A stretch of DNA of 64,000 bases from Planctomycetota bacterium (lineage in GTDB: Bacteria > Planctomycetota > UBA1135 > UBA2386). The position numbers and the translations under genes are program-made. Shown here piece by piece: positions 35,846 through 53,870 of the stretch. Numbering within the stretch: position 1 is the stretch's first letter; every line of letters begins with the position of its first letter. Below the pieces are notes generated by a model, which was given only the letters and a program-made list of their open reading frames with translations, was not told where the DNA came from and did not search any database. The stretch is from contig OZ245006.1 of NCBI GenBank assembly GCA_965223545.1, forward strand, positions 7,648,001-7,712,000, read 5' to 3'.

Positions 35846-37028
35846 GGTGGCGTACGTAGGTCGGCGACCGGCGCTCTGGATGACCTGGAGTCATTGGAAA
35901 AAGCGGCTGCGAGCGGTCCAGGGCTTGGATCTGCGACTATTCGTCGACGCACAAAACCAACGCGTTGTCCGCCGGCGACATGTAGAGCCCAACGATGTCG
36001 CGAACCTTCTCGATGAACTGTGGATCCGTCGACAGCGAGAACGACTCTGCTCGGTTGGGACGTAACCCGAAAGCCCGCCACGTACGCCGTACAGCGTTTG
36101 GAGACACTCCGAGCTCCTTGTCGAGTTTCCGTGAGCTCCAGTGCGTACAACCTCGCGGTTTCTCGTGCAGTGTGACGTCCACGATCCGCTCGACGTCGGC
36201 GTCGGTCACCGGTAACTGTTCCGGCACGCACGTTCTTCGCGCCGCGCCGAACCGGCGCATGAACAGAGATTTCCGCCACCGCGTGTCGGCGCCGGCGCTG
36301 GGCACGACGGTGACCGTCCGTAGCCGGCTGGGCTACGAGCCCACGAACAACTGACGCACGACGTTGTCGATCGCGTTGTCGGCTTCGGCGATCTGGGCAC
36401 GCCGTTGCCGTCCCAGCATCCAGCCACGCGGAGTCAGCTGACCGACCTGGGAGGCAGGAGTGGTCGAGATCGCGTGAAGCACATCCCGCAGGTAGAGCAG
36501 CGGGCTGATGCCATGCTCTCGACACGACTGGACGAGACTCAAGAGGATGAGTGAAGCTTGGGTGCCGTCCTCGGATCCGAAGAAGAGCCAGTTCTTCTTG
36601 CCGATCACGACTGCACGTAGAGCACGCTCGCAGCCGTTGTTTGAGATCTCGCGGATGCGGCCATCGGTCAGGAAGCGCTCGAGAGCAGGCCACTGGTTGA
36701 GCCCGTAGCGAACTCCCTCCATGAACGGACCCTTCGGGAGGCTCGGCTGGTCGATGTGCACCTGCTCGAGCCAGGCCTTGAGCGCGTTCGCGATCGGACG
36801 AGAGTCGCGCTGACGAACCTTGACCAGCTCGTCATCCGTGAGGGGTCGACCCTCTTTGCCCTTCTTGGCGACGCTCTCGATCGCGAACAGCTTGCCGATC
36901 CAGCCCAGAGCCTTCTCCGTGGTCGAGTCGCCGAGCTTCCGCGCATTCACGAAATAGCGACGAAGGTGTGCCCAACATCCGTAAGCGTCCGGTGAAGGCA
37001 TCTCGAAAGCCGCTGGCGGATCGGCAGG

Positions 37029-37373
37029 ATGCGGCGGATGACGAAGAGAATCCCCGTGTGGGCTCGGGCGGAGATGCGCGAGCTGCTTCAAGAGCTGGAC
37101 ACCTCAGGCGTGACGGTCGCCGAGTTCGCGCGCCGGCGTGGCGTCAACGCAAACCGCATCTACTGGGCGAGGCGGCAAGCCCGAGCTGCGGCGGCGCCGA
37201 CCTCCGCGCAGGCGATGTCGGACTTCGGGGAGCTGGTGGTCTCTGCAGACCCGTCTCCGCGACGAGCAGCGGCCATTGAGTTGCGGGTGCCGTCGGGCGC
37301 GGTTGTCGATGTGCAGCGCGACTTCGACGAAGCGACGCTCCGACGGCTGCTCGGAGTCCTGCTGCCATGCTGA
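37029..37373 (+). CDS. tnpA: IS66 TnpA-like protein
   Basis: SGVTVAEFARRRGV..IYW; FDEATLRRLL..L.C. Confidence 0.8.
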   Translation: MRRMTKRIPVWARAEMRELLQELDTSGVTVAEFARRRGVNANRIYWARRQARAAAAPTSAQAMSDFGELVVSADPSPRRAAAIELRVPSGAVVDVQRDFDEATLRRLLGVLLPC

Positions 37374-37747
37374 GCTTTCCTCCCTCGCCGCAAGTCAAGA
37401 TCTTCGTTTGCCGGAAGCCGGTGGACATGAGGAAGAGCTTCAGCGGTCTGTCCGGTGCGGTCATCGACGTGGTCGACCACGACCCGCAATCTGGTCACCT
37501 CTTCCTCTTCTTCAACAAGCGCCGGACCATGATGAAGGCACTGGTATGGGAGCCGTCCGGTTACTGGGTGCTGGCGAAGCGACTGACGAGCGGCCGCTTT
37601 CAGGTCTTCGATCGCTCGGCCGAGAACAGCAGCCGATTCGAGATTGCGAGTAGCGATCTCGCGCTCTTGTTGGACGGCATCGACCTCCGTGGCGCGCGAC
37701 GCAGAGAAGTTCGCGATCAGGTGCTGCAACGACTGGCCGCGACTTGA
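37367..37747 (+). CDS. tnpB: IS66 TnpB
   Basis: VDMRKSFSGL, LFLFFNKRR, KRL..GRF. Confidence 0.92.
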   Translation: MLSFPPSPQVKIFVCRKPVDMRKSFSGLSGAVIDVVDHDPQSGHLFLFFNKRRTMMKALVWEPSGYWVLAKRLTSGRFQVFDRSAENSSRFEIASSDLALLLDGIDLRGARRREVRDQVLQRLAAT

Positions 37748-37777
37748 TCCGTCTCCGGTTTGTGTTAATCAGAGGGA

Positions 37778-39331
37778 GTGACGCCGCTCACGGACCTCGA
37801 CGAAGCCAACTCGACGATCGTCAAGCTGCGCGCCGAGATCGAGCGCCTTCGCGGGCAGCTCGAACTGATGAAGCAGCGCACGTTCGGACGGCGCCGCGAG
37901 CACATCAATCCGAACCAACTGCTGCTGTTCGAGGCCGGCGTCGCGCAGCTCGAAGAGCTGCGGAAGCAGGCGCAGGAAGCGGAGCAGTCGAGCGAACTCG
38001 CGAAGCCTGACCCGAAGAAGAAGCGGAAGCGCGGTCACGGTCGCGGTCAGTTCGCCGAGCACCTGGATCGGCATGTCGTCGAGGTCGACGTGCCGGAAGC
38101 GGAGCGCTGCTGCCCCGAGTGCGGCGAGGCCATGCACTGCATCGGGACTGACGTCACCGAGCGTGGCCACATCATCCCAGCGCGGTTGGTCGTGAAGCGC
38201 TACGTACGCAACAAGTACGCGTGCCCGCACGGGCACAGGATGAAGATGGCGTCGATGCCTGCCGGCGTCGTCGAGAAGGCGAAGTACGAGCCCTCCGTCT
38301 ACGCGCATCTCGTCACAGCGAAGTACGGCGACCACCTGCCGCTGAACCGCCTGCAGGGGATCTTCCGCCGCTTCGGGGCGCACGTCCCGAAGCAGACCAT
38401 GTGGGACATGCTGGCGCGCTTCGACGAGATCGCGGCGCGTCCGATCCTGGCCGAGATGCGGCGCCAGCTGCTTCAAGAAGATGTTCTTCAAGCCGACGAG
38501 ACCCCGATCAGGGTGCGACTGGAAGGCCAGAAGGGCACCCGGCGCGGTGTGCTCTGGGCCTGGCGGAGCGCTCGCGGCAGCCCCAACGAGATGGTCGTGG
38601 CCGACTTCAGGGACAATCGATCCGCGAAGGGGCCCAACGCTTTTCTCGGCGCGTGGTCCGGGACCTTGTTGACCGATGGCTACGACGGTGTGAACCCGAA
38701 AGCGCAGCAGAACGCGATCACGCGGGCTGGGTGCTGGGCGCACGCCCGTCGGAAGTTTCGGGATGCGCTCACTGCTGGTGCATCACGGGCTGGTTTGGCG
38801 CTGCGACCGATCCAGAGGCTTTTCTGGATCGAGCGCGCCGTACTGTCCCGAGCGAAGGACCGGAACCTGACCCGTGAAGCCCTCATCGAACTGCGTGAGA
38901 CCGTTCGTAGCCGCAGATCCAAAGCGGTGCTCCACGGCCTCTACGAGATCGTGTTCGGCCTCCAAGAGGACCCGGCGACCGCGGGCAACGAGCTGCTTCG
39001 CAAGGCGGTGAACTACGCCATCCGGCAGCGGGACCCGTTGCTCGCGCACCTCGACGACGGCCGGCTGCCGATCCACAACAACGACACCGAGCGTGACCTG
39101 CGCCACGTCGTGACCGGCCGGAAGAACTGGATGACGCTCGCCAGCGAGAAGGGTGGCAACGTGGCAGCTCGCCTCTACTCGATCGTGCTCAGCTGCAAGC
39201 TGGCGAAGGTCAACGTCGAGCGCTACCTCGAGGACGTCCTGGTCGCCGTCGCCACCACGCCGTCGTCGCGCATCGCCGAACTCACGCCCTGGGGCTGGGC
39301 GAAGGCACGCGCTGCCGGCCAGTCCTGCTGA
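37778..39331 (+). CDS. tnpC: IS66 transposase TnpC
   Basis: FGRRRE, CPECG, ADETP, LLTDGY, CWAHARRKF, NNDTERDLR, GRKNW. Confidence 0.94.
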   Translation: MTPLTDLDEANSTIVKLRAEIERLRGQLELMKQRTFGRRREHINPNQLLLFEAGVAQLEELRKQAQEAEQSSELAKPDPKKKRKRGHGRGQFAEHLDRHVVEVDVPEAERCCPECGEAMHCIGTDVTERGHIIPARLVVKRYVRNKYACPHGHRMKMASMPAGVVEKAKYEPSVYAHLVTAKYGDHLPLNRLQGIFRRFGAHVPKQTMWDMLARFDEIAARPILAEMRRQLLQEDVLQADETPIRVRLEGQKGTRRGVLWAWRSARGSPNEMVVADFRDNRSAKGPNAFLGAWSGTLLTDGYDGVNPKAQQNAITRAGCWAHARRKFRDALTAGASRAGLALRPIQRLFWIERAVLSRAKDRNLTREALIELRETVRSRRSKAVLHGLYEIVFGLQEDPATAGNELLRKAVNYAIRQRDPLLAHLDDGRLPIHNNDTERDLRHVVTGRKNWMTLASEKGGNVAARLYSIVLSCKLAKVNVERYLEDVLVAVATTPSSRIAELTPWGWAKARAAGQSC

Positions 39332-40318
39332 AACGCGTCGGCGGTCGCTTTTCAACCGCTGACCGCCATGGCGTCACCGGACGCTTACCAACATCCGATG
39401 CGCGCGATGCTGGTTGGATCGAGATCGCTGTAGCAGTCATGGCCATCGCACTGCAACCGACCACCCCGGTCGCCCAAAACCTCTTTGGGGCTGCCGCGAT
39501 TGCGTGAGTCCGTGGCGTTGTAGAAAACCCCGGCGTGTTGATCGCGCCACGCCCACACGTGGATCTTCTTCTGTCCGGAGTTTCGGCCGTTGCGCTGGTT
39601 GCCGTAGGTGTCGTCCACCTGCAGGACGGAGGTGTCGAGGCTCTCGAGAACTTGCTCGACATGGGCATCGAACACGGGCTTCAAGAGCTCGGCACAGCGC
39701 ATCGCCGAAGTGCATAAGACGCTACGCGACAGGCTGAGCCCCTCGGCTGCGTACTTCTTCTCCAGGCGCGCGTACGGCATGTGGTTGGCAAACCGGTCGA
39801 AGATGATCTGCGCCAGGAAGCCGGGGCCGAGGATGCTCTTGTCGAGGACTCGGGTGGGGCCGGCGGCGACGACGACGTAGCCCTGACAGGTCGCGCAGGA
39901 GTACTTCTTCTTCACGATCTGGTGGACGAACGAGAGCTCGATGCGCTCGAGCTCCTGCGAGACCTCTTCGCCGAACTCCCGACGGCCGTTGCCGCAGCAA
40001 GGGCACAGCAGGTCCTCGCCCTCGATCGTGAATACGGAGCGTTGCCGCGGGAGATGCTCTGGGAAGTCCTTGCGTCGCTTGGTGCGCCTGCGCTTGTGCT
40101 CGGGGACGGTGATCTCTTCGGCCTCTTCTTCGGCCGCCTTGGCGTCGGCTCTCGCTTCCTCTACCGCCTCTTGTGCGAACGGCAGCAGCTGTCGCGGGTC
40201 GATGTAGCGGCTCTTCTCCGAGCGGCGACCGAACAGCATGCGCTGAAGGTCGGACATCTGCGACTTCAGCGACGAGATCTGCGTGAGCAGATCCGGGATC
40301 AAGGCACGTAGCTGCGCC

Positions 40319-41464: not shown

Positions 41465-43026
41465 GAGTCTGCGCCACGGCAGTCGAGCAGCGGTTTCTCC
41501 GGGGCTCGCCTGCGTGATCGCGGCGACTTCCCGGATCGGACTCCCGTTGTTCGCTACGCGAGTGACCGATGTCCCCAGTGGTCGATGGGGCGTCCAGAGT
41601 GACGAATGGGGCCTCCTGCGGCCTTCTTCCTCATCGTGAGGCAGCCATTGCCGCCATTCGGCGGATGTTGAGCGCCATGCAGACGAGGTTCCACTCGCCC
41701 TTCACCTTGCGGAGGCCGCGGAGGTGGAACGATCGGAAGCCGATCACGTGCTTCACCCACCCGAAGACGGGTTCGACGATTGCCTTGCGTTTTCGGTAGC
41801 GCGCCCGCCCGCGCTTGGTCCCCAACTTCCTTCTCATCGCAGCGGTATGCGGCTGCTCTTTCGCCGGTCGCTTGGCTTGCTTGCTCTCGCGCCCAACGGA
41901 TACGTAGCCGTCGATTGCCATCGCGTCGAGCAACTCAAAGTCCTCCTCGTTCCTGTAGCCAGCGTCCGCCAACACCCGCTTTGCGGTTTCACCGGTGTTC
42001 TCAAAGCTCGCGCTCAGCACCGGGAGCAATTGGTTGTGGTCGTTGGTCGACTGGGTCACCGTGGTCGCGACGACGATCTGCTTCTTCGCGTCTACCGCGA
42101 TCTGGGTGTTGTAGCCCTGCTCGAAGGACTTGCCGGATGTCGGCATGATCCGGCTGTCGGGGTCGGTGAAGTTCTCTTGGTCCTTGGGCTTCGGCAACAC
42201 GGGCCCTCCGGGGCCAGGCCTGTCGTCGTCGTCTGCCTTTGCCTGCCGCTTGGCCTCGGCCTCCGCGGCCTTGCGAGCCTCGAGCCGTTCCTTCGCTTCC
42301 TTGATCTTCGCCAGGCGTGACTTCCGCCGGCTCAGCTCTTCCGGAAGCTCGTCGCCGCGGAAGTCCGGGCCGAAGGCTTGGTCATCGAGATCGTCCTGCG
42401 CCCGCGCAGCCCTCGTCAACTTGCGGATCTCGCTGCGAAGCTTCTTCTCCTCGCTCAACATGCGGTCGTAGCTCATCGCTTTCCGCTTGCTCGCGTTGCC
42501 CTTCACCTTGCTGCCGTCGATCGCAACCGTGCCCATCTTGACCAGTCCCGACTCCTTCGCGATCTGGACGACTTGCACGAACAGTCGCTGAAACTCGTCC
42601 AGATTAGTTTCGCGGAAGCGGCAGATCGTCCGGTGGCTGGGCGTCAGGCCCGCTGCGATCACCCGAAAGGCGATGCTGTCCTCAATCTGGGCGGCGATCT
42701 TGCGCGACGAAAACGTCCCCGTGCAGTACCCGTAGATCAGCAGCGAGAGCATCACGCGGGGCGGATAGGCCAACTCGCCCTTGCCCGACACCCGGTACTT
42801 GTCGAGCAAGTCGTCGATGTCCAACTGATCGACCGCATCGATCACGAACCACGCGAGATGGCCTTCGGGCAGCCAGTCACTTGGCGACGGCGGCAGCAGA
42901 AAACCCTGGCGGCGATTCTCTTGCTTGCGGAACTGACCCATGTCCTCTCTACGAAAGGAGAGGTCGCTCTGCCTACTGCTTCTGCCGAAACTTCTGGGCT
43001 AGCGCGTCATCCCGTGGCGCAGACTC
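41465..43026 (-). mobile_element. IS1182-family element
   Basis: Perfect 15-bp IR GAGTCTGCGCCACGG; CTAG on both sides (41461-41464, 43027-43030). Confidence 0.9.
41631..42941 (-). CDS. IS1182-family transposase
   Basis: FLLPPS..DWLPEGHLA, AIDGSKV, TDPDSRIM, LADAGY, IVEPVFG.VK. Confidence 0.92.
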   Translation of the reverse strand: MGQFRKQENRRQGFLLPPSPSDWLPEGHLAWFVIDAVDQLDIDDLLDKYRVSGKGELAYPPRVMLSLLIYGYCTGTFSSRKIAAQIEDSIAFRVIAAGLTPSHRTICRFRETNLDEFQRLFVQVVQIAKESGLVKMGTVAIDGSKVKGNASKRKAMSYDRMLSEEKKLRSEIRKLTRAARAQDDLDDQAFGPDFRGDELPEELSRRKSRLAKIKEAKERLEARKAAEAEAKRQAKADDDDRPGPGGPVLPKPKDQENFTDPDSRIMPTSGKSFEQGYNTQIAVDAKKQIVVATTVTQSTNDHNQLLPVLSASFENTGETAKRVLADAGYRNEEDFELLDAMAIDGYVSVGRESKQAKRPAKEQPHTAAMRRKLGTKRGRARYRKRKAIVEPVFGWVKHVIGFRSFHLRGLRKVKGEWNLVCMALNIRRMAAMAASR

Positions 43027-45774
43027 CTAGAGTAGGTGTGGCAATTCAGTCGTGGTGGCGCTGACCCGCGGGCATTCGAACGCATCGTTCTGATCCCATC
43101 CCCCGAGCGTGAAACGGGCCGCCAGACCCCGAGCCCGTACCTGTTCGAGCCACCGTCCGGCCACCTCCGCGGAAGCTCCGGAGTCGAGCATTGCGTCGTA
43201 GAGCAGGGTGTACTCCTGTGGCAGGCGGGTTGCGAACGTGACGGGATCGTCAGACCCGATGCAAACAGCGATGCGGTGTTCTCCGGACCCGTCTAGCGAG
43301 CAAAGCCGCCACAGTGGGTGGTCTTGAAGGTCGCCCAGATTGTCGATCAGAAGGTTCGACGATGGGTTCACCTCGACCGTGAGCCCGCGACTAGCCACTT
43401 TCCTGCGCAACCCACGCTGGAGCTCTCTGATGATCTTGCCCTCGGGTCGTGTGTCGACCCACTCGGTCTCCTGGCCTCGCGAGTAGATGTCTCTGCTCGT
43501 GAGATAGCCCAAGAGCCAGCTATCGGCGCCTCGTCCCTCGGCCGCGCCATCCGGAAAACCGAGGCTTCGCAGTGTGTCGTCGGAATGCAGATCGCGGTAG
43601 TGGCGCGCTAGAAAGGATGGCCGGAGTTCCTCCGCGAAGACTGCCATCGATAGCCGAGCGATCTCGCGTTCCACGAACGATGCACGATCGGCCTGAGGGA
43701 CGACACTTGTTGCGGCGTACATTTTCCATTCCCACACGAGGTCCCAGAGTCTCTCCTCTCGTGTGACGATTACACCGCCCGCTCGCTCTCCCCAGGATTC
43801 GGCATCCAGACCGAGAGCGAGGCCGTGCCCAATGCGATCCCCTTCTCGCAGGCCTAGGTAGTCAATCGCCTCTTCGAGTCTGCGCAGCCCTCCCAGAAGG
43901 TGTACGTAGTCTTCGCCTGCATGGACGGTCTTGTGGAGGGGACTAGATATGTCACCGAGTTTCGGTGCAAACCGTCGCGCGACCAAATCGCTGGTTGTCT
44001 CCAGGTACCGGAATACTGGAGCGAATACCCAGATCGGAACGGCCAGCTCGTCGCCTGCGATGTCGATGCCCCGGATCACGCGCATAGACAGTGGAAAGTG
44101 CCATAGGACCCAGGCCAGGGACTTTGCATGGGATCGCAGTTGGTTGTAGTAGGCTGCGAACCGATACCCTGTTGCATTGTTGATCGACGACGGGTCTGCT
44201 TCGGAGTCTGCTCCGCTTGCTCGAGGCGTGCCCGTTTCGGCTCCCCCGCCGCGTCGTTTTAGGAAGTGGAAGACCAAACCGAACTCGGTGACTCCAGTCC
44301 GCTTCGCCGCAGATATAGCCTCCCGGACTGTGCTGAGAGTGCTCGACACAGAGTCCTTCGGCGATGTCCGAACTTCCAGTGACCGGAGGCCACCAGGCGG
44401 CCTCAGTCCCTCAGTCGTCTGCAGTCCCTGGTTGTCCGCGCGCGCGGGAGCTTCGCTCATCGTGGTCAGAGCATTCGACTCTGAGTTTGGGTTGCGCGCC
44501 CCGGCGCCCCGGAAACGAGAGCCGTCGGCGAGGCCGCAAACGGAGGCGGCGGCCTCGACTCGGGCACCGATTCCGATATAGCGCTTGCTGGGTGCCAATC
44601 GTCCAAATGCGCGGACGAACCACTGCAGGCCGGGCGTCATCGGACGTAGGACGATGTTCCGATAGAAGATGCTCTGCACCCGGACAAGCTGCCAGAACAA
44701 GCGGCCGAAGGCCGTGTCGTGCTCATTGCGGTGCAGATAGCCCATCGCTGTGTGCAGGAACCGGATGTCGGAGCTCGCTTCGTCTGCAGAGGTTACGGGA
44801 AAAAAGTGGCCAATAGGGTCGCGCGACAACCATTCTTCGAGTGAGTCTGACCGCTCGCGAGGGCGCACTCCGGTAATCGACGAGTACGCGTACCGGAGCT
44901 CCGCGTGCTGAGATGAGTCGGTATCCAGGCTCCCGCGTTGTAGTTCCAGTAGGGCGTCGCGTACGCGGAGCCCGTGCACAGCGTCGAATTCTCGAACGAG
45001 AGCAGGGTTGACGATCTGGGTCAGGTAGTGTGCCATGCCCCTATCTTGCTGCCGGTCAGGTTGGGAGAGGTATGCGGCAAGCAAGTAGCGGGCGAGAGCA
45101 GCACGGAGGAGCCACGCGGAAAGATCTTTACCCTCTCGCATTGCCGCGCCGGGAGCTCGACAAGCGTCTGGTCCCCAGTCCGGATCCGCGATTCCGCACG
45201 TGGCGGCGATCCAGAGGTGACCAAACTCCAGCGCAGCGCCAAGGTGCAGGTGTGTTTCAGCGAAGCCCCTATCCGCAAGCGATCGGAGCACGAGCGGTGA
45301 TACGCTCTGAACCGATGAGGGAGGTGGTGTAACGGGCAGGGCCGCAAGGAGTAGTTCTGGTGGCATTGCGAAGGAGATCCAACGCCATGCGCGCCGCGCC
45401 GCGACCTCGCTGGGGACCGACAACACGCCGGCAAGTCGCTCGTCGACTCCGCTCAAGGCTGGGCGGGCCTTGGCGCCGTCCGGAACTAGGAAGCGCTGCG
45501 ATAGGGTGGAGACGTAGCTGGCCAGAGGGCGCGACGAACGATTAGCGTCAAACCACAGTCGGTCTCGCACTCGCACCATGTCGTCGATGGAATGCGCCGG
45601 CGTTGCGTGAATTAGGTCGCGTTCGGTGGCTCGCCAAAGCGTGCGTGTGGGTCGCGACATTCGTGGGTCGAGTCGTGTTGCGCCGATCGCGAGCGATGCC
45701 TCTGACGCTATGGGGGCAGCTGCGACTTCGGCCAGCACATAGAAGGCCGGAATTCCGGTCTGTCTACTTGTCAT
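43027..45774 (-). CDS. Large adenosine-deaminase-fold protein, RdrB-like
   Basis: ETHLHLGA, GIDIAGDE, TVHAGEDY, DRIGHGLALG, VEVNPSSN, IGSDDP; overlaps the end of the upstream ATPase gene; alternative start at 45786. Confidence 0.85.
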   Translation of the reverse strand: MTSRQTGIPAFYVLAEVAAAPIASEASLAIGATRLDPRMSRPTRTLWRATERDLIHATPAHSIDDMVRVRDRLWFDANRSSRPLASYVSTLSQRFLVPDGAKARPALSGVDERLAGVLSVPSEVAARRAWRWISFAMPPELLLAALPVTPPPSSVQSVSPLVLRSLADRGFAETHLHLGAALEFGHLWIAATCGIADPDWGPDACRAPGAAMREGKDLSAWLLRAALARYLLAAYLSQPDRQQDRGMAHYLTQIVNPALVREFDAVHGLRVRDALLELQRGSLDTDSSQHAELRYAYSSITGVRPRERSDSLEEWLSRDPIGHFFPVTSADEASSDIRFLHTAMGYLHRNEHDTAFGRLFWQLVRVQSIFYRNIVLRPMTPGLQWFVRAFGRLAPSKRYIGIGARVEAAASVCGLADGSRFRGAGARNPNSESNALTTMSEAPARADNQGLQTTEGLRPPGGLRSLEVRTSPKDSVSSTLSTVREAISAAKRTGVTEFGLVFHFLKRRGGGAETGTPRASGADSEADPSSINNATGYRFAAYYNQLRSHAKSLAWVLWHFPLSMRVIRGIDIAGDELAVPIWVFAPVFRYLETTSDLVARRFAPKLGDISSPLHKTVHAGEDYVHLLGGLRRLEEAIDYLGLREGDRIGHGLALGLDAESWGERAGGVIVTREERLWDLVWEWKMYAATSVVPQADRASFVEREIARLSMAVFAEELRPSFLARHYRDLHSDDTLRSLGFPDGAAEGRGADSWLLGYLTSRDIYSRGQETEWVDTRPEGKIIRELQRGLRRKVASRGLTVEVNPSSNLLIDNLGDLQDHPLWRLCSLDGSGEHRIAVCIGSDDPVTFATRLPQEYTLLYDAMLDSGASAEVAGRWLEQVRARGLAARFTLGGWDQNDAFECPRVSATTTELPHLL

Positions 45775-48700
45775 ACCCCAAGTCAACCGTAGGGAGATGC
45801 CCGGTCTGGTGTAGGAGATCGTCTATGTCGTCGTCCGTGAGCATCAGTTTTCCGTCGGCGAGAGTGTGTAGTGGGTGTTCTCTGCGCTTCTCTAGGTCTA
45901 CTCTGAACTGGGTGAGCTGATCGTGTTGGCTTCGTAGGTTCCTGAAGTCAGCTTGGGCCATTTGTTCGGTCAGGTCTTTTTCGATTGTCTTGAGGTCGTC
46001 GTTGATCTTTCTCAATGTCTCTTCCACAGCTTGGTTTGTGCTATTGTGCGGGGGATCGGAGGCTTCCTCTGTGAGGGGCGGTGTCTCTGGCGCAGGAGCA
46101 TCGTTTATGTCCGTGGCGCGAAGCTTGGCGACTTGCGCTTTGAGAAGGCGCGTACTGTTCTCGAGTCGCCTGAGGACTCTGGTGGGAGCAAATAGCCACC
46201 AGGCGAAAAAGCTGTCCGATTCCTTGTTGCTATAGTGATGGCAAAACAGCTTGCAGCATTGGCGGCGTTGGGTGCGTACGGAGTCGAGCAGCGCATCTGT
46301 CCATAAACTGCATAGTGACGGGTTATTCCGTGGTTCGCAGAAAATCTGTGCAACGGTAGGTGATAGTTCTCCTTTGTCGTTGGGCAGATCTAGGCCCCCT
46401 TCCGGCGCCAGGAGGGAAACGAGGCTGACGAGCCAGTCTTCCGCTAGCATTACCCAGCTGGTTTGACCATGAGCTCGGTGTGTCTCAACGGCCTTGGCTA
46501 GCTCTTCTACGCGCGCAGCTAGCTTCTCCCATGGCAATGCGTCGACGTTCGGGTTGCCGGCGCTGTCCAGTGCCTTGAAGCGCTCTGTTCCCGTCAGGAC
46601 AGCTGTAGATGCGGCGATCCAGGTGAAGGCGAGGTATTCGTAACGTTTGCCGCCTGATGCCGGATGCCGGCGCATTTGCTGAACGGCTCGATTCCATACA
46701 TGTCGGAGGTAGTTGAACTGCCAGAAACTTCTCCATCGGGGTGGGTACCACGGAACATCGACTGTGACTTCCGGCTTGAGTCTCCATCGCGTCGTCGCCC
46801 AGACCGAGTCAGGTGTCTCCCTCGGGTGCGAGTTGTCGTAGCCCTCCACGAAGGCCGCCCAGTCCCGCTTTGGGTCCGGGGTCAGGTACGGTCCCGCAAT
46901 GCCTGTTGGGGTTCGGAGGGCGAGTAGATCGTGCAGGATGATGATTGTTGCTGTGGATCGATCTGAGAGGCAGCGCCAAGATTGCTCCATGCCTTGTTGC
47001 TCGGGGTTGGACACTCTGTCGCCGGGACCGAGACGCTCAGGTCGGAAATCCCAGTCCTTAACCTGCCAGGCGAGGAGCGTGTTCTTTCGCTTCTTCTCCT
47101 CTGGGATCTCGAGCTCTCTCCCCTTGCCCCGAAGGGGCTGGAGGCTGTCGGTGTGGAATTCCCATCCTCCGAGGAAATCGCGGCGCACTGCCCGCAGGAG
47201 TCGCCGCTTCTCGGTTGGGTTGAGGTCTCGCTCCTCCTCTATGGCTTCAGCGTAGAAAGTCGCGAATGCGCCAATCGCGGGAATCGTAGCGTCGCGTACG
47301 TTCTCGATTGGCTTCTGAATCGTGTCGAGCTCTCCGAGTAAACCGCGCACGTCGGTTTCAGTGCTTGCGTCCTGGATGTTGTCACGAATGGACGCATACT
47401 CAGATTCTGCCCGCAGGAGCACGTACCAGATGTCGGAAGCGTAGCGTGGAGTTGCGACGAAGAGGGCTGCGCCGCTGTAGATTCCCTGACCCCAGCGCTC
47501 GGCGTGGCTGTCCCGTTCCGGGTCGAAAAACAGGAACTCGCTCATGTTTCTGATCTTTTGACCGCATACACACTGGTACCGCGGCTGGTGGTCCGGCGCG
47601 CGCTTGTCGTCCTCGCCGATGTGGGATTCGGGGGCCGTATTAATGATGACCGGGAGCGCCGTTAGGAGGCCATCAATCGATTTGGAATCTGCGAGGTCGG
47701 GTGGCTTGTAAGCGCGAGCTTCGCCTACGCGCATGGGTTCCAGCCGGATGCGTCGAGACGGCGCAATCAGTTTGCGCATGGTGTAGTGTGCTGTGCCGCC
47801 CAGCAGGCCAGCGAGCTCCTCTCCGTGGACCGCAGATCCGGGTCCAATTTGTCTCGCGATGTCCACAAACTCGCCGGTGAGTTTGAGCTGCATCATTGTC
47901 GTGGCAGTAGAGATGCTGCCTAGGATCACGACCAGCAGCCGCGGGCCGGATAGCAGTCTCAGCATCTGCAAGAGTTCAACCGACCTGGCAGGGTTTGTAT
48001 CGAAATCATCGATAGGTAAGACAAAGATCGGATCCTTGATATCGGGCCACCGATAACCCCTTGCCAGGTTTGCCAGGGTAGATGACAGTCGCTCACCGAA
48101 TTGCAGGCGCGCAACTTCCGCCCGCCGCGTCTCCACTTGATACACATCCGGGTCGAGAGTAGCGGCTCGTTCTCGGAGGTTGCCTTCCCAGGCAATCGCG
48201 ACATCGCGCTGAATTCTGCCCAGGTCAGCGAGAGGGTCTGAGTCCTGTGGGTGGTTGTGGCGAAGGAACCCACGCTGGTCGGGGTCACTGAGCCTCAGTT
48301 GATCGAGTGGTTCCACGCGCCGCTGGATTCGTGCGAGAATTGCAGCCAGGAGGTTGGTGGGGCGTGGCAAGACTTCCATATCGAGCGTCTCGAGCCAGCA
48401 GAGGCGTTCCCGAAGGGTTCCGATGTCGCGCCTGAGTTCGTCATAGAACGCCAAGCCATGACCGTCGCCACGGTCACCGTTGACGTCTTGGAGCTTCTCG
48501 ATCTCTCGGTCCCAATGTTCGGAAGTGCTGGCTGTGCAGCACTGGAGCAGGGACAGCAGGAGCGATGTCTTTCCTGTTCCTCGATCACCGGACACCATGA
48601 CATTGGAGCTACAGCGTCGGGCGTCGAGCTTGATCGGTGCGCCGGGAGCTGGTGTTACGTCCCCATGATCGTCTAGCAGGTCCACAGCGCGAGCCAGGTG

Positions 48701-48808
48701 CTTCACGAGGTCAAAGAAGGCGGTGCGCTGAGCTTGGTCGAAAAGACGCCATCGGAAAGGTCGCGCTTCTGGGTGGGGGAAGAACCGGGTGTCGCGGGTC
48801 TTGGACAT
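45764..48808 (-). CDS. Large N-terminal P-loop ATPase, RdrA-like
   Basis: Walker A SGDRGTGKTS, Walker B VLPIDDFD, LQMLRLL..PRLLVVILG, RKLIAPSRRI; GGAG RBS; 1014 aa uninterrupted. Confidence 0.82.
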   Translation of the reverse strand: MSKTRDTRFFPHPEARPFRWRLFDQAQRTAFFDLVKHLARAVDLLDDHGDVTPAPGAPIKLDARRCSSNVMVSGDRGTGKTSLLLSLLQCCTASTSEHWDREIEKLQDVNGDRGDGHGLAFYDELRRDIGTLRERLCWLETLDMEVLPRPTNLLAAILARIQRRVEPLDQLRLSDPDQRGFLRHNHPQDSDPLADLGRIQRDVAIAWEGNLRERAATLDPDVYQVETRRAEVARLQFGERLSSTLANLARGYRWPDIKDPIFVLPIDDFDTNPARSVELLQMLRLLSGPRLLVVILGSISTATTMMQLKLTGEFVDIARQIGPGSAVHGEELAGLLGGTAHYTMRKLIAPSRRIRLEPMRVGEARAYKPPDLADSKSIDGLLTALPVIINTAPESHIGEDDKRAPDHQPRYQCVCGQKIRNMSEFLFFDPERDSHAERWGQGIYSGAALFVATPRYASDIWYVLLRAESEYASIRDNIQDASTETDVRGLLGELDTIQKPIENVRDATIPAIGAFATFYAEAIEEERDLNPTEKRRLLRAVRRDFLGGWEFHTDSLQPLRGKGRELEIPEEKKRKNTLLAWQVKDWDFRPERLGPGDRVSNPEQQGMEQSWRCLSDRSTATIIILHDLLALRTPTGIAGPYLTPDPKRDWAAFVEGYDNSHPRETPDSVWATTRWRLKPEVTVDVPWYPPRWRSFWQFNYLRHVWNRAVQQMRRHPASGGKRYEYLAFTWIAASTAVLTGTERFKALDSAGNPNVDALPWEKLAARVEELAKAVETHRAHGQTSWVMLAEDWLVSLVSLLAPEGGLDLPNDKGELSPTVAQIFCEPRNNPSLCSLWTDALLDSVRTQRRQCCKLFCHHYSNKESDSFFAWWLFAPTRVLRRLENSTRLLKAQVAKLRATDINDAPAPETPPLTEEASDPPHNSTNQAVEETLRKINDDLKTIEKDLTEQMAQADFRNLRSQHDQLTQFRVDLEKRREHPLHTLADGKLMLTDDDIDDLLHQTGHLPTVDLGYDK

Positions 48809-48883: not shown

Positions 48884-50361
48884 CAGACCGTTGAAAAACT
48901 TCGAGATCGAGCTGCCGTGAACTGATCGACGTACGTAGGGATGACATCCTGATCAGCGGAGGTGGATTCCATGGCACTCGGTAAGCGACGCGCAAAGCAA
49001 CAGGAGCTCTTGGTCGCGACGACGGCCCTGCCGCGATCGCCCGGCCATCCTTTCTACTCGAAGCTGAACGAGCTTCTCGCCGACGCGAAGTTTGACCGTC
49101 ACGTCGAGTCGCTGTGTGAGCCGCACTACAAAGAGGGGGGGCGGCCCTCGATCCGACTGGGCCTCTACTTTCGGATGTTGCTGGTTGGCTACTTCGAGGG
49201 AGTGGATTCGCAGCGCGGAATCGCGTGGCGTTGCAGCGACAGTCGCTCGCTGCAGGACTTTCTCGGACTGCTCCCGACCGAGCGCACCCCGGATCACTCG
49301 AGCCTGACCGTGATCCGCAAGCGGTTGCCGGTGGAGGTACACGAGGAAGTGTTCGCGTTCGTCGTCAAGATCGCGAAGTCCAAGGGCATTGTGAGGGGCA
49401 AGGCGCTGGCCGTGGACACGACCACGCTGGAGGCCAACGCGGCGATGAAGTCGATCGTTCGCAAGGATACCGGCAAGGGTTGGAGCGACTACGTGCGTGA
49501 ACTTGCGAAGGAAGCAGGCATCGAGGGCCCCACGGAGGAGGACCTGCGGCGATTCGATCGCAAGCGCCGCGGGAAGAAGACTTCGAACAAGGACTGGGGG
49601 TCGCCATCTGACCCCGACAGTCGAATCACGAAGATGAAGGACGGACGGACGCACCTCGCGTACAAGGCCCAGCACGCGCTGGACACCGAGTCCGAGATCC
49701 TCGTCGCCGCAACAGTCCACCATGCCGACACTGCTGATAGCGAGGCGCTGAAAGAAGCAGTCGTCGAGGCCGAAGCCGCGCTGGTCAGTGCCGAGCACGA
49801 CACCCCGTACGAAGAGGTCGTCGCCGACAAGGGCTACCACAAGACCGAGACCCTCGCTTGGCTGGACCAGCGCGGTATTCGCTCCTACATCCCGCAGCCG
49901 GGATCACGACGGAACCGCAAGTGGACTGACAAGCCAGCGTCCTGGCAGAAAGCGTATCGAGCCAACCGACGACGAGTTGCAGGCCCGCGGTCGAAGGTGC
50001 TCCAGCGACACCGGAGTGAGCGCGTCGAACGCAGTTTCGCTCATACCTGCGAGTCAGGAGTAGTCCGACGGACATGGCTACGCGGGATCGAGAACATCAA
50101 GAAGCGGTACGTGGTCCATGCCGCAGCAGGCAATCTGGGGACCATCATGCGGAGCTTGTTCGCGGTCGGGACGCCGAAGGCATTGCAGAGGGGGGGCTGC
50201 GGCCTTCTTGAGGTCTGTTTCGAGATCCACGACCCGTTCCGACATCGAATCGACTGCTGGGTCGTCCGGATCGTCGGTTTCGTTCGGCGGATCGGTGATT
50301 CGCGGCCGCACGGCATACGTCTCTTCCCGCGAGACCAGATCTCCCCTTCTTCAACGGCCTG
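48884..50361 (+). mobile_element. IS5/IS1182-like element
   Basis: IRs CAGACCGTTGAAAAA / CAGGCCGTTGAAGAA; CTAG at 48880-48883 and 50362-50365. Confidence 0.85.
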
Positions 50362-50519: not shown

Positions 50520-50642
50520 CTACCAATGAACGTCAACCTCACGCCCGAGCTCGACGAGCTCGTGCAGAAGAAGGTCGCCTCCGGCCTCTACAACGTAAGC
50601 GTCCGGTGAAGGCATCTCGAAAGCCGCTGGCGGATCGGCAGG

Positions 50643-50987
50643 ATGCGGCGGATGACGAAGAGAATCCCCGTGTGGGCTCGAGCGGAGATGCGCGAGCTGC
50701 TTCAAGAGCTGGACACCTCAGGCGTGACGGTCGCCGAGTTCGCGCGCCGGCGTGGCGTCAACGCAAACCGCATCTACTGGGCGAGGCGGCAAGCCCGAGC
50801 GGCGGCGGCGCCTACGTCCGCGCCGGCGGTGTCGGACTTCGGGGAGCTGGTGGTCGCCGCAGACCCGTCGCCGGGACGAGCAGCGGCCATTGAGTTGCGG
50901 GTGCCGTCGGGCGCGGTTGTCGATGTGCAGCGCGACTTCGACGAAGCGACGCTCCGACGGCTGCTCGGAGTCCTGCTGCCATGCTGA
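50643..50987 (+). CDS. tnpA: IS66 TnpA-like protein
   Basis: Near-identical to 37029-37373. Confidence 0.8.
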   Translation: MRRMTKRIPVWARAEMRELLQELDTSGVTVAEFARRRGVNANRIYWARRQARAAAAPTSAPAVSDFGELVVAADPSPGRAAAIELRVPSGAVVDVQRDFDEATLRRLLGVLLPC

Positions 50988-51361
50988 GCTTTCCGCCCTC
51001 GCCGCAAGTCAAGATCTTCGTTTGCCGGAAGCCGGTGGACATGAGGAAGAGCTTCAGCGGTCTGTCGGGTGCGGTCATCGACGTGGTCGACCACGACCCG
51101 CAATCTGGTCACCTCTTCCTCTTCTTCAACAAGCGCCGGACCATGATGAAGGCACTGGTGTGGGAGCCGTCCGGTTACTGGGTGCTGGCGAAGCGACTGA
51201 CGAGCGGCCGCTTTCAGGTCTTCGATCGCTCGGCGGAGAACAGCAGCCGATTCGAGATTGCGAGTAGCGATCTCGCGCTCTTGTTGGACGGCATCGACCT
51301 CCGTGGCGCGCGACGCAGAGAAGTTCGCGATCAGGTGCTGCAACGACTGGCCGCGACTTGA
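50981..51361 (+). CDS. tnpB: IS66 TnpB
   Basis: Identical translation to 37367-37747. Confidence 0.92.
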   Translation: MLSFPPSPQVKIFVCRKPVDMRKSFSGLSGAVIDVVDHDPQSGHLFLFFNKRRTMMKALVWEPSGYWVLAKRLTSGRFQVFDRSAENSSRFEIASSDLALLLDGIDLRGARRREVRDQVLQRLAAT

Positions 51362-51391
51362 TCCGTCTCCGGTTTGTGTTAATCAGAGGGA

Positions 51392-52945
51392 GTGACGCCG
51401 CTCACGGACCTCGACGAAGCCAACTCGACGATCGTCAAGCTGCGCGCCGAGATCGAGCGCCTTCGCGGGCAGCTCGAACTGATGAAGCAGCGCACGTTCG
51501 GACGGCGCCGCGAGCACATCAATCCGAACCAACTGCTGCTGTTCGAGGCCGGCGTCGCGCAGCTCGAAGAGCTGCGGAAGCAGGCGCAGGAAGCGGAGCA
51601 GTCGAGCGAACTCGCGAAGCCTGACCCGAAGAAGAAGCGGAAGCACGGTCACGGTCGCGGTCAGTTCGCCGAGCACCTGGATCGGCATGTCGTCGAGGTC
51701 GACGTGCCGGAAGCGGAGCGCTGCTGCCCCGAGTGCGGCGAGGCCATGCACTGCATCGGGACTGACGTCACCGAGCGTGGCCACATCATCCCAGCGCGGT
51801 TGGTCGTGAAGCGCTACGTGCGCAACAAGTACGCGTGCCCGCACGGGCACAGGATGAAGATGGCGTCGATGCCTGCCGGCGTCGTCGAGAAGGCGAAGTA
51901 CGAGCCCTCCGTCTACGCGCATCTCGTCACAGCAAAGTACGGCGACCACCTGCCGCTGAACCGCCTGCAGGGGATCTTCCGCCGCTTCGGGGCGCACGTC
52001 CCGAAGCAGACCATGTGGGACATGCTGGCGCGCTTCGACGAGATCGCGGCGCGTCCGATCCTGGCCGAGATGCGGCGCCAGCTGCTTCAAGAAGATGTTC
52101 TTCAAGCCGACGAGACCCCGATCAGGGTGCGACTGGAAGGCCAGAAGGGCACCCGGCGCGGTGTGCTCTGGGCCTGGCGGAGCGCTCGCGGCAGCCCCAA
52201 CGAGATGGTCGTGGCCGACTTCAGGGACAATCGATCCGCGAAGGGGCCCAACGCTTTTCTCGGCGCGTGGTCCGGGACCTTGTTGACCGATGGCTACGAC
52301 GGTGTGAACCCGAAAGCGCAGCAGAACGCGATCACGCGGGCTGGGTGCTGGGCGCACGCCCGTCGGAAGTTTCGGGATGCGCTCACTGCTGGTGCATCAC
52401 GGGCTGGTTTGGCGCTGCGACCGATCCAGAGGCTTTTCTGGATCGAGCGCGCCGTACTGTCCCGAGCGAAGGACCGGAACCTGACCCGTGAAGCCCTCAT
52501 CGAACTGCGTGAGACCGTTCGTAGCCGCAGATCCAAAGCGGTGCTCCACGGCCTCTACGAGATCGTGTTCGGCCTCCAAGAGGACCCGGCGACCGCGGGC
52601 AACGAGCTGCTTCGCAAGGCGGTGAGCTACGCCATCCGGCAGCGGAACCCGTTGCTCGCGCACCTCGACGACGGCCGGCTGCCGATCCACAACAACGACA
52701 CCGAGCGTGACCTGCGCCACGTCGTGACCGGCCGGAAGAACTGGATGACGCTCGCCAGCGAGAAGGGTGGCAACGTGGCAGCTCGCCTCTACTCGATCGT
52801 GCTCAGCTGCAAGCTGGCGAAGGTCAACGTCGAGCGCTACCTCGAGGACGTCCTGGTCGCCGTCGCCACCACGCCGTCGTCGCGCATCGCCGAACTCACG
52901 CCCTGGGGATGGGCGAAGGCACGCGCTGCCGGCCAGTCCTGCTGA
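51392..52945 (+). CDS. tnpC: IS66 transposase TnpC
   Basis: Near-identical to 37778-39331. Confidence 0.94.
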   Translation: MTPLTDLDEANSTIVKLRAEIERLRGQLELMKQRTFGRRREHINPNQLLLFEAGVAQLEELRKQAQEAEQSSELAKPDPKKKRKHGHGRGQFAEHLDRHVVEVDVPEAERCCPECGEAMHCIGTDVTERGHIIPARLVVKRYVRNKYACPHGHRMKMASMPAGVVEKAKYEPSVYAHLVTAKYGDHLPLNRLQGIFRRFGAHVPKQTMWDMLARFDEIAARPILAEMRRQLLQEDVLQADETPIRVRLEGQKGTRRGVLWAWRSARGSPNEMVVADFRDNRSAKGPNAFLGAWSGTLLTDGYDGVNPKAQQNAITRAGCWAHARRKFRDALTAGASRAGLALRPIQRLFWIERAVLSRAKDRNLTREALIELRETVRSRRSKAVLHGLYEIVFGLQEDPATAGNELLRKAVSYAIRQRNPLLAHLDDGRLPIHNNDTERDLRHVVTGRKNWMTLASEKGGNVAARLYSIVLSCKLAKVNVERYLEDVLVAVATTPSSRIAELTPWGWAKARAAGQSC

Positions 52946-53214
52946 GACGCGTCGGCGGTCGCTTTTCAACCGCTGGCCGCCATGGCGTCACCGGACGCTT
53001 ACTCTACAACAACCAGAGTGAGGTGGTGCGCGAGGCGCTGCGGTTGCTGGCCGAGCAGGACCGGCTGCGCGAGGCGCACCTCGAGAGGCTCAGGACGGCA
53101 CTGGCGGCGGGGCTCAAGGAAGCGGACCGCGGCGAGCTGCTGGACGGTCCGGAGGTCGTCGGCGAGATGCGCGAGTTCTTGCGGCAGCGCGGGAAGTCCG
53201 GGGAGAGGGGCTGA

Positions 53215-53403
53215 GTGGCCTACCGACTCAGCCCGCAAGCACGACAGGGATTCCAGAGCATGCTCGACTACGTGGATCGTGAGTTCGGCGTCCGCGTTGC
53301 CGGTCGCGTCCTCGACGAGTTGGAGGCGGCGTTCGAGAGCTTGGCTGAGAACCCGCGCATCGGGGACCGCCGCGAAGACCTCACTGCCGACGATGAGATA
53401 CGG
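53215..53403 (+). pseudogene. parE: ParE/RelE toxin, C-terminally truncated
   Basis: MAYRLSPQARQG..LAENPRIGDRREDL..EIR then unrelated sequence; the usual H.I.Y...V.I.RV.H C-terminus is absent. Confidence 0.75.
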
Positions 53404-53581
53404 CTCGCCGCTCGGCATCCGCATTCAGCTGCGCCGGCCACGTTCACATCGAAGACTACACGACTATTGGTGGGATTGAGCACCAATTCCGACCAGCCGT
53501 TCTCAAACGGCGGCGTGCCGGACATCGGGCTCGAGTGCGCCGGCAAAGGTGGGGGTGGGCGACGAGGTGGTGGCGCTCGGC

Positions 53582-53870
53582 GAGCGCGCTGCCGCGACGG
53601 CGTGTGGTAGCTGCGTCCGGCCGAGTCGGAGCGGGCGCAGCGCGAGGAACAAGCCACGACCGCTGCGGATATGCTGCGTAACATGGGGCTGGCTCGCCCC
53701 GCGGCGACACGTAGCACGTCGCGTGGACCGAGTCGTCACCGGACGCGGCCCGGGCCGACTCGGTCTCTCGCTTCTGTCACTGGGATAATCCGGTCACCGA
53801 TATCGCATCTTCAGTTTGCTGCACCGGAAGAACGTGACAGTGGTCCACCTGGGCTACGTGACCGCTGACA
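53582..53870 (+). mobile_element. Diverged orphan right end of the Mu-like transposon
   Basis: Colinear with 35282-35562, ending in ctacgtgaccgctgaca, with many substitutions. Confidence 0.85.

Follow-up and report, generated by a model that had tools for sequence, protein, structure and literature searches.

The operon described here occupies positions 43,027 to 48,808 on the reverse strand of a 64,000-nt stretch of contig OZ245006.1 (assembly GCA_965223545.1), and this whole stretch is referred to as the window. Two genes make up the operon: an upstream gene for an ATPase of RdrA type and a downstream gene for an adenosine deaminase of RdrB type, the same gene order as in the RADAR system of E. 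coli P0304799.3 (structures 8FNT/8HR8 and 8FNV; PMC9994260). The deaminase start codon (ATG) gives an 11-nt overlap with the 3' end of the ATPase gene; an alternative TTG start at 45786 would give a protein of 919 residues. A first-pass annotation, made from the sequence alone, had described an overlapping, intact operon with all motifs in place and a G+C content below that of the host, and all of this was confirmed; its reading of the pair as RADAR-like is supported for both proteins by sequence profiles and by structure. The G+C content is 60.4%, compared with an average of 69.7% over the genome (5 of 1394 segments of the same size were equally low), and 14 CTAG sites were counted in the operon, compared with one per 5 kb genome-wide, which is a second sign of foreign origin. 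The positions of all features are collated in Table 1. The literature drawn on comprises PMC9994260, PMC7699616, the Kongming preprint (10.1101/2024.12.20.629578), PMC13454610 and 10.1101/2024.10.10.617714.

Sequence and structure of the two proteins

The deaminase carries the motifs HLH (175), LEVR (466), HAGED (618), RIGH (647), NPSSN (803) and GSDD (840–843). The zinc ligands H175, H177, H618 and H650, the catalytic E621 and D842 are conserved in 119–120 of 120 sequences, and the His and Glu residues align to H498, E501 and H530 of E. coli RdrB (EcRdrB). RdrB was the best family match (PADLOC E 4.9e-45; NCBIfam 190.5 bits), and E. coli RdrB was also the best match in the PDB. A model built from 120 sequences (predicted local distance difference test score, pLDDT, 89.9) was aligned to EcRdrB (8FNV) over 679 residues (Z 32.3, root-mean-square deviation (rmsd) 3.8, residues 17–891 against 1–798); the next non-RdrB structure gave Z 22.9 over 309 residues, and any other deaminase was aligned over at most 377 residues. 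Because the alignment to EcRdrB is full-length, the three shell-forming insertions of RdrB, and not just the barrel, are predicted to be present. The CRISPR-associated deaminase Cad1 aligns to the window deaminase over the barrel only (276–328 residues), and no CARF or CARF_ADA match was found in the window protein.

The ATPase contains the motifs GDRGTGKT (residues 74–81) and IDDFD (266–270). Residues K80, D267, D268 and R455 are invariant in 142 ATPase sequences; the sensor-1 position is Asp in 105 of the 142 and Ser in the window ATPase and 17 others. R455 was assigned as sensor 2 on the basis of the alignment to a Rhizobium RdrA-type protein and of the PxR motif. Searches with the single sequence yielded one relative and no PDB match, and the best family, RdrA, was recovered with 19 bits in PADLOC (E 9e-5) and 30.5 bits in NCBIfam. 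Since a single sequence finds almost nothing, profiles were needed. With a profile of 13 relatives, E. coli RdrA (EcRdrA) was the top match in the PDB (E 1e-9; next match 0.012), and residues 17–350 were matched by HHalign to all five other RdrA-type lineages at 96–98%, the comparison profiles holding 1–2 sequences each.

A model of the ATPase, for which 83 of the 142 sequences in the alignment were used (pLDDT 85.7), was compared with 48,161 representative chains. EcRdrA was the top match (Z 18.8, 477 residues, rmsd 9.8), followed by RdrA of Streptococcus suis (SsRdrA; Z 17.1, 434 residues, rmsd 9.3) and by BrxC (Z 12.9, 293 residues); against 8HR8 (EcRdrA) the alignment reached Z 20.8 over 542 residues, out to model residue 839. 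RdrA is described in PMC9994260 as having a crown helical bundle and helices between strands 4 and 5. Model helices 153–251 (crown, before Walker B) and 299–347 (between strands 4 and 5) are predicted to sit as in RdrA, and the profile alignment to EcRdrA spans both insertions. A homodimer prediction for the AAA+ module (residues 8–485) scored 0.00 and was used neither for nor against the assignment.

The E. coli proteins (947 and 799 residues, compared with 1014 and 915 in the window) thus share with the window pair Walker A and B, the crown and channel insertions, the PxR lid motif, the zinc tetrad plus Glu and the full-length RdrB fold, at a structural identity of 11–13% for the ATPase and about 20% for the deaminase. 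The window pair differs from them in its Trp-rich lobe, in the Ser at the position of the sensor-1 Asp, in a private 44-residue insert and in a helical tail. SsRdrA (8FNU), from strain SS993, is similar to the window ATPase in sequence at the P-loop only (E 0.05–0.13), and it is likewise dissimilar to an EcRdrA-type protein (no match at E 1).

Both proteins score well under the cut-offs of the NCBIfam equivalogs NF041743 (RdrA, cut-off 600) and NF041744 (RdrB, cut-off 800), models of Aliivibrio/Salmonella type, and the pair is therefore not a member of these equivalogs. The failure was rejected as evidence of novelty, because accepted RADAR controls fail the same cut-offs. A Pantoea plasmid near-copy of the solved E. 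coli system gave 127.8 for RdrA, above the window value, and 114.6 for RdrB, below it; R. phaseoli N841, which is listed as RADAR in Table S1 of PMC9994260, gave 105.5 and 172.2. A score below the cut-off thus does not exclude membership in RADAR, and the ATPase is the more distant protein. In pairwise BLAST, the window deaminase gave 129 and 109 bits with two accepted RdrB types, which gave 81 bits with each other. A PADLOC RdrA model was matched at E≤0.01 by the ATPases of 6 of the 12 relatives tested.

Residues 471–880 of the ATPase form a region with 4.4% Trp, whereas Trp makes up 0.5–1.5% of the C-terminal part in the five further RdrA-type proteins compared. W675, W687, W705, W730 and D627 are kept in 90–100% of the 142 sequences, two beta-sheet elements are predicted in this region, and an Atlas search with the lobe gave no usable match. 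In the full-length model, part of the lobe, to about residue 839, overlaps with EcRdrA (477–542 residues aligned, rmsd 9–12 Å). The first-pass annotation had singled out the Trp-rich region as unusual and had proposed a different sensor region. The Trp-rich region is a real feature of the lineage, but known RdrAs are also described in PMC9994260 as similar in sequence only within the ATPase domain and nevertheless as having the lobe in common, and the model partly superposes on RdrA here, so that a different sensor region is a possibility rather than a finding. For the same reason the Trp-rich lobe is likely to be homologous to the lobe of RdrA. The coiled-coil-like tail that had also been pointed out appears in the model as a helical hairpin; it is poorly conserved, is as long in just 15 of 149 relatives, and is a variable element rather than a feature of the family.

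Table 1. Positions of the operon, its parts, the flanking elements and selected genes at related loci (L, locus in the set of relatives).
Feature	Position	Strand	Remarks
RdrA-type AAA+ ATPase	45764..48808	−	1014 aa; upstream gene of the pair
RdrB-type adenosine deaminase	43027..45774	−	915 aa from ATG at 45774
AAA+ module	47399..48787	−	residues ~8–470: Walker A K80, Walker B D267/D268, sensor-1 position S298, crown and central-channel helices, lid with R455
Trp-rich alpha/beta C-terminal lobe	46169..47398	−	residues 471–880; lineage-conserved; candidate sensor
Helical-hairpin tail	45767..46168	−	residues 881–1014; model helices 875–902 and 923–976
In-frame insert, 44 aa	44389..44520	−	before the LEVR strand; private to the window copy
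Putative Shine–Dalgarno sequence (GGAGA)	48819–48815	−	read from the sequence
Putative −10-like hexamer (TATACT)	48868–48863	−	read from the sequence; matching −35 position falls within the upstream insertion sequence
IS1182 element	41465..43026	−	NF033551 383 bits (cut-off 270); CTAG on both sides
IS1182-like element	48884..50361	+	NF033551 179 bits, below cut-off; CTAG on both sides
Membrane family 1	L002:6618–7214, L005:5979–6590, L001:9780–10289, L071:2010–2549		and 7 more loci
Membrane family 2	L040:2413–2958, L081:6892–7704, L091:6377–6943, L109:774–1232, L070/L072:5562–7094, L042		
Methyltransferase/UvrA-like/TauD cassette	L011, L012, L016, L048, L058, L064, L073, L075, L077, L088, L089, L092, L093, L096, L097, L106		

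Lineage and distribution

Relatives were collected as 20 genome loci, from which the weak locus L020 was dropped, and 74 metagenome loci taken from the best 80 of 202 stretches, to give 93 loci (85 distinct at 90%). One of them, L001 from the unpublished genome G405, is the closest relative in the trees and accounts for a single membrane-gene case and a single row of the counts; none of the conclusions rests on it alone. The ATPase gene lies upstream of the deaminase gene in 59 of the 59 loci with more than 1 kb of upstream sequence, and 872 clusters (50% identity, fragments included) were matched by the ATPase profile at E≤1e-30. Named hosts include Planctomycetota, Myxococcota, Acidobacteriota, Verrucomicrobiota, Desulfobacterales and Proteobacteria, with alphaproteobacterial members among them (L009; Jiella).

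The trees support the clade at 100/100 and show it among about six deep RdrB-type lineages, whose order they leave unsettled, also when rooted with the ordinary deaminase of the host. The distribution is patchy: an RdrB-type gene was found in 3 of 400 other genomes of the host phylum, one of them of this clade, and in 0 of 5 in the family. No relative was found in viral contigs. A second ATPase–deaminase pair, from another deep RADAR-type lineage and with an ATPase that matches no RdrA model, lies tail-to-tail with the clade operon at L003:14429–19521 (−), and at L068:350–5740 an extra clade deaminase upstream of the operon is followed by a 725-residue protein without family hit and by IS110.

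No description of the lineage was found in the literature searched, which did not extend to subscription papers (among them Gao 2020 and the paper on 8HR7), and Figure S19 of the Kongming preprint may show it. Table S1 of PMC9994260 comprises 280 systems from 7 phyla, with no Planctomycetes, Myxococcales, Acidobacteria or Verrucomicrobia; given the alphaproteobacterial members, some of its rows could belong to the clade. The proposal of a distinct, uncatalogued lineage is supported, and that of an undescribed system was too strong: this is a new lineage of a known system and not a new kind of system. Measured against the same table, several traits that had been listed as unusual are not. A third gene is mostly not noted there (nor is one for S. 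suis, likewise a non-proteobacterial host), RdrA reaches 1182 residues, and many hosts are Firmicutes or Bacteroidetes, so that the non-proteobacterial host had been recognised correctly without being exceptional. In the host genome (91% complete) no ftsZ was detected, and 14 DUF1501 genes score above cut-off; both are consistent with Planctomycetota, on a distribution of these markers that we take as given.

Insertion sequences and state of the window copy

The operon had been placed amid pseudogenes. Its neighbours are instead stacked insertion sequences (IS), some truncated and some intact, with IS1182 and IS66 transposases that score above cut-off. A 25-kb island of nested IS (28600–53900) contains several IS66 types, two IS1182-family elements and an IS630 fragment. 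At 50525–53610, a short gene is split by an IS66 element with an 8-bp target duplication and is followed by an open reading frame (ORF) of 131 residues; the two presumably resemble a ParD/ParE-type toxin–antitoxin pair, and no NCBIfam hit was obtained. A composite transposon between the 99%-identical IS66 copies at 36980–39388 and 50594–53002 was considered and rejected, because the right copy carries an 8-bp target duplication of its own and 8 near-identical, full-length copies of the element occur in the genome.

The two IS1182-family elements directly border the operon. The right CTAG of the downstream element (43027–43030) includes the stop codon of the deaminase, and the upstream element, of which an 85% identical copy is found elsewhere in the genome, lies 71 nt upstream of the ATPase start. 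A sigma-70 promoter scan did not find a full promoter. Among the sequencing runs that contain the stretch no RNA run was listed, and runs with a low share yielded short fragments only.

The 44-residue insert of the deaminase is real, as had been noted in the first-pass annotation (at about 45 residues), and it is predicted to be disordered (pLDDT<50 at 418–457); it cannot mark a subtype, because 0 of 119 relatives carry it. The site measures 59 residues in the window protein, 15 in 118 of the 119 relatives and 20 in one. No second copy in the genome and no self-duplication was found, and an origin as a repeat or mobile element was therefore rejected. Contigs from two runs of a single study, perhaps the source of this DNA, are identical to the whole stretch, insert included.

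These features raise the question of whether the family is RADAR and the window copy itself silenced or impaired, a reading that is compatible with the assignment favoured below and that we regard as somewhat unlikely. An IS lies 11 nt upstream of the sole −10-like hexamer, the insert stands at a site of nearly fixed length, and the deaminase deviates from the consensus in 14 of 173 near-invariant columns (median 4), which is more than in 118 of the 119 relatives; the comparison is biased, since these relatives were selected by profile score. Both frames and all catalytic residues are nevertheless intact within an IS-riddled island, and the insert is probably a disordered loop. The two bordering IS also sit at the two CTAG sites at which an insertion leaves the coding sequence whole, and the 13 internal sites are unhit; the chance of such a pair is about 1 in 105 if insertion were random, a figure calculated post hoc.

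Neighbouring genes and assignment

A scan of the neighbours of related loci started from 370 ORFs, from which the 140 nearest non-redundant ones were retained (64 loci, within 2.3 kb); some of the gene labels rest on background knowledge, and the ORF caller was crude. Defence, toxin–antitoxin or mobile-element genes account for 18 of the 140 (14 loci), compared with 0 of 74 control ORFs (Fisher p 4e-4), so that an association of homologs with such genes was found, but in a minority of loci. Two further observations were made beside clade operons: a CRISPR-like array of about 64 repeats with 61-nt spacing, which starts about 45 nt past the deaminase (L009:12965–17141), and nucleotide-modifying HMUDK_hel and MazG_C genes directly upstream (L067:3138–5113).

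At L041:352–4383, a locus inside the clade (100/100), overlapping KomB and KomC genes begin 47 nt past the deaminase gene (KomB: E 1.4e-59 to 8ZSG, with His at the catalytic Asp; KomC: E 3.5e-99), with no intervening KomA. KomBC is an effector activated by dITP, and the Kongming preprint already mentions RADAR-like systems beside KomBC (10.1101/2024.12.20.629578). This single locus therefore supports, from gene content, dATP deamination by the clade. Kongming (KomABC) has a dITP-making deaminase, as predicted for the clade, whereas the window deaminase is of the 915-residue RdrB type and is paired with an ATPase. In the genome of the window, only a weak, distant Ham1 match was found for KomB (E 2e-5), and none for KomC.

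Small membrane proteins form two unrelated families. Members of the first (170–245 residues, 3–4 predicted membrane segments) adjoin the operon in 11 of the 93 loci, on either side and either strand; no match was found for this candidate lineage-specific accessory in PADLOC, Pfam, NCBIfam or a named Atlas cluster. The second adjoins it in 7 of 93, at a distance of 15–45 nt in four, and two members are fused to IPT/TIG domains. In the 38 loci with both flanks readable, family 1 is present in 4, family 2 in 2 and neither in 32. Neither family was found in the genome of the window, and no SLATT or other model was matched. Csx27- and SLATT-associated RADAR subtypes, attributed to Gao 2020, are summarised in PMC7699616; in these, a small membrane-protein gene is adjacent, as in some clade members; at the window, IS lie at both ends instead.

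A sister system, in which RADAR catalytic cores are joined to a non-homologous sensor lobe and have a different output, with inosine nucleotides serving mainly as a message to exchangeable partners (KomBC or small membrane proteins), would account for a lobe that has conserved Trp and beta strands and no sequence similarity to other lineages, for the two membrane families and for KomBC at L041. It is improbable. Known RdrAs, as far as they are described in PMC9994260, likewise differ outside the ATPase domain and yet share the lobe, and the 542 residues aligned with EcRdrA exceed the 463-residue AAA+ module. Both membrane genes are absent from most of the loci in which the two flanks could be read, and the genome of the window has neither these genes nor KomBC.

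In 16 of the 93 loci the operon faces a conserved downstream cassette on the opposite strand (an S-adenosylmethionine (SAM) methyltransferase, a UvrA-like ATPase of 1420–1490 residues, a TauD dioxygenase and a 161-residue protein; 41–85% identity between distinct loci; Myxococcota, Acidobacteriota and metagenomes). This cassette, together with the many loci that sit among housekeeping genes, could suggest a non-defence module for nucleotide metabolism or a natural product. That reading is very improbable, because the cassette, besides its opposite orientation, is missing from most loci and from the genome of the window, the distribution is patchy and of foreign G+C content, the full RdrB architecture comes with an obligatory RdrA-type partner, and the host already encodes an ordinary deaminase of its own.

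We therefore favour, with a probability of about 0.8, the assignment of the pair as an anti-phage system of RADAR type that would convert ATP and dATP into inosine nucleotides. The observed basis is the gene order, the intact catalytic residues, the fixed pairing and the patchy spread, together with the predicted RdrA and RdrB folds. The operon is most likely a horizontally acquired stand-alone rdrAB of a deep lineage in Planctomycetota, Myxococcota, Acidobacteriota and others.

Several points weigh against this assignment. The ATPase is remote from known RdrA models (its PADLOC and NCBIfam scores compare with 73 and 128 for an EcRdrA-type protein). In profile comparison its C-terminal half matches none of the five other RdrA-type lineages, at 1–2 sequences per profile, and superposition that includes this half on EcRdrA and SsRdrA was obtained only at the rmsd of 9–12 Å. 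The acidic triad of the three-fold interface of EcRdrB (E595–E597) is not conserved in the clade; the columns vary, and the window deaminase has two Glu at the aligned position. The position of the clade relative to the accepted RADAR lineages is not settled by the tree, which does not establish that it belongs within them (approximately unbiased test, p 0.254). Linkage to defence genes is modest, with no defence, toxin–antitoxin or mobile-element neighbour in 50 of the 64 loci and named defence genes at 7 of 140, and the categories were set after the list had been seen, with non-independent controls from 3 genomes. Linkage to KomBC is found in 1 of 93 loci.

Ring-on-shell assembly (heptamer on dodecamer), conversion of ATP and dATP upon infection and protection that depends on both enzymes are described for E. 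coli and S. suis RADAR (PMC9994260). By analogy, the ATPase would form a two-layer ring, the crown of which docks on a hollow deaminase shell. Upon phage infection, the C-terminal lobe of the ATPase would sense a cue, the deaminase would then turn ATP and dATP into ITP and dITP, poisoning the nucleotide pool and so aborting the infection; the Trp-rich lobe may be this lineage's version of the sensor layer. An extension of this scheme, which we consider rather unlikely, is a distinct RADAR subtype in which a new Trp-rich alpha/beta sensor domain responds to another phage cue, with inosine nucleotides passed on to exchangeable partners (the KomBC NADase, the two undescribed membrane families and perhaps the methyltransferase/TauD/UvrA-like cassette). 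If it were true, Planctomycetota and Myxococcota would possess a large defence platform based on nucleotide signalling that has so far escaped notice.

RADAR is thought to be rare (less than 1% of genomes, 7 phyla; PMC9994260). The lineage described here reaches phyla absent from that list. Since current models hardly detect its ATPase, it is probably underrepresented in inventories of defence systems for Planctomycetota and Myxococcota. Locus L041 provides a concrete operon for the proposed relay from RADAR to KomBC through dITP, and the C-terminal lobe, now deeply sampled in a third version with conserved candidates at its surface, could help to establish what RdrA senses.

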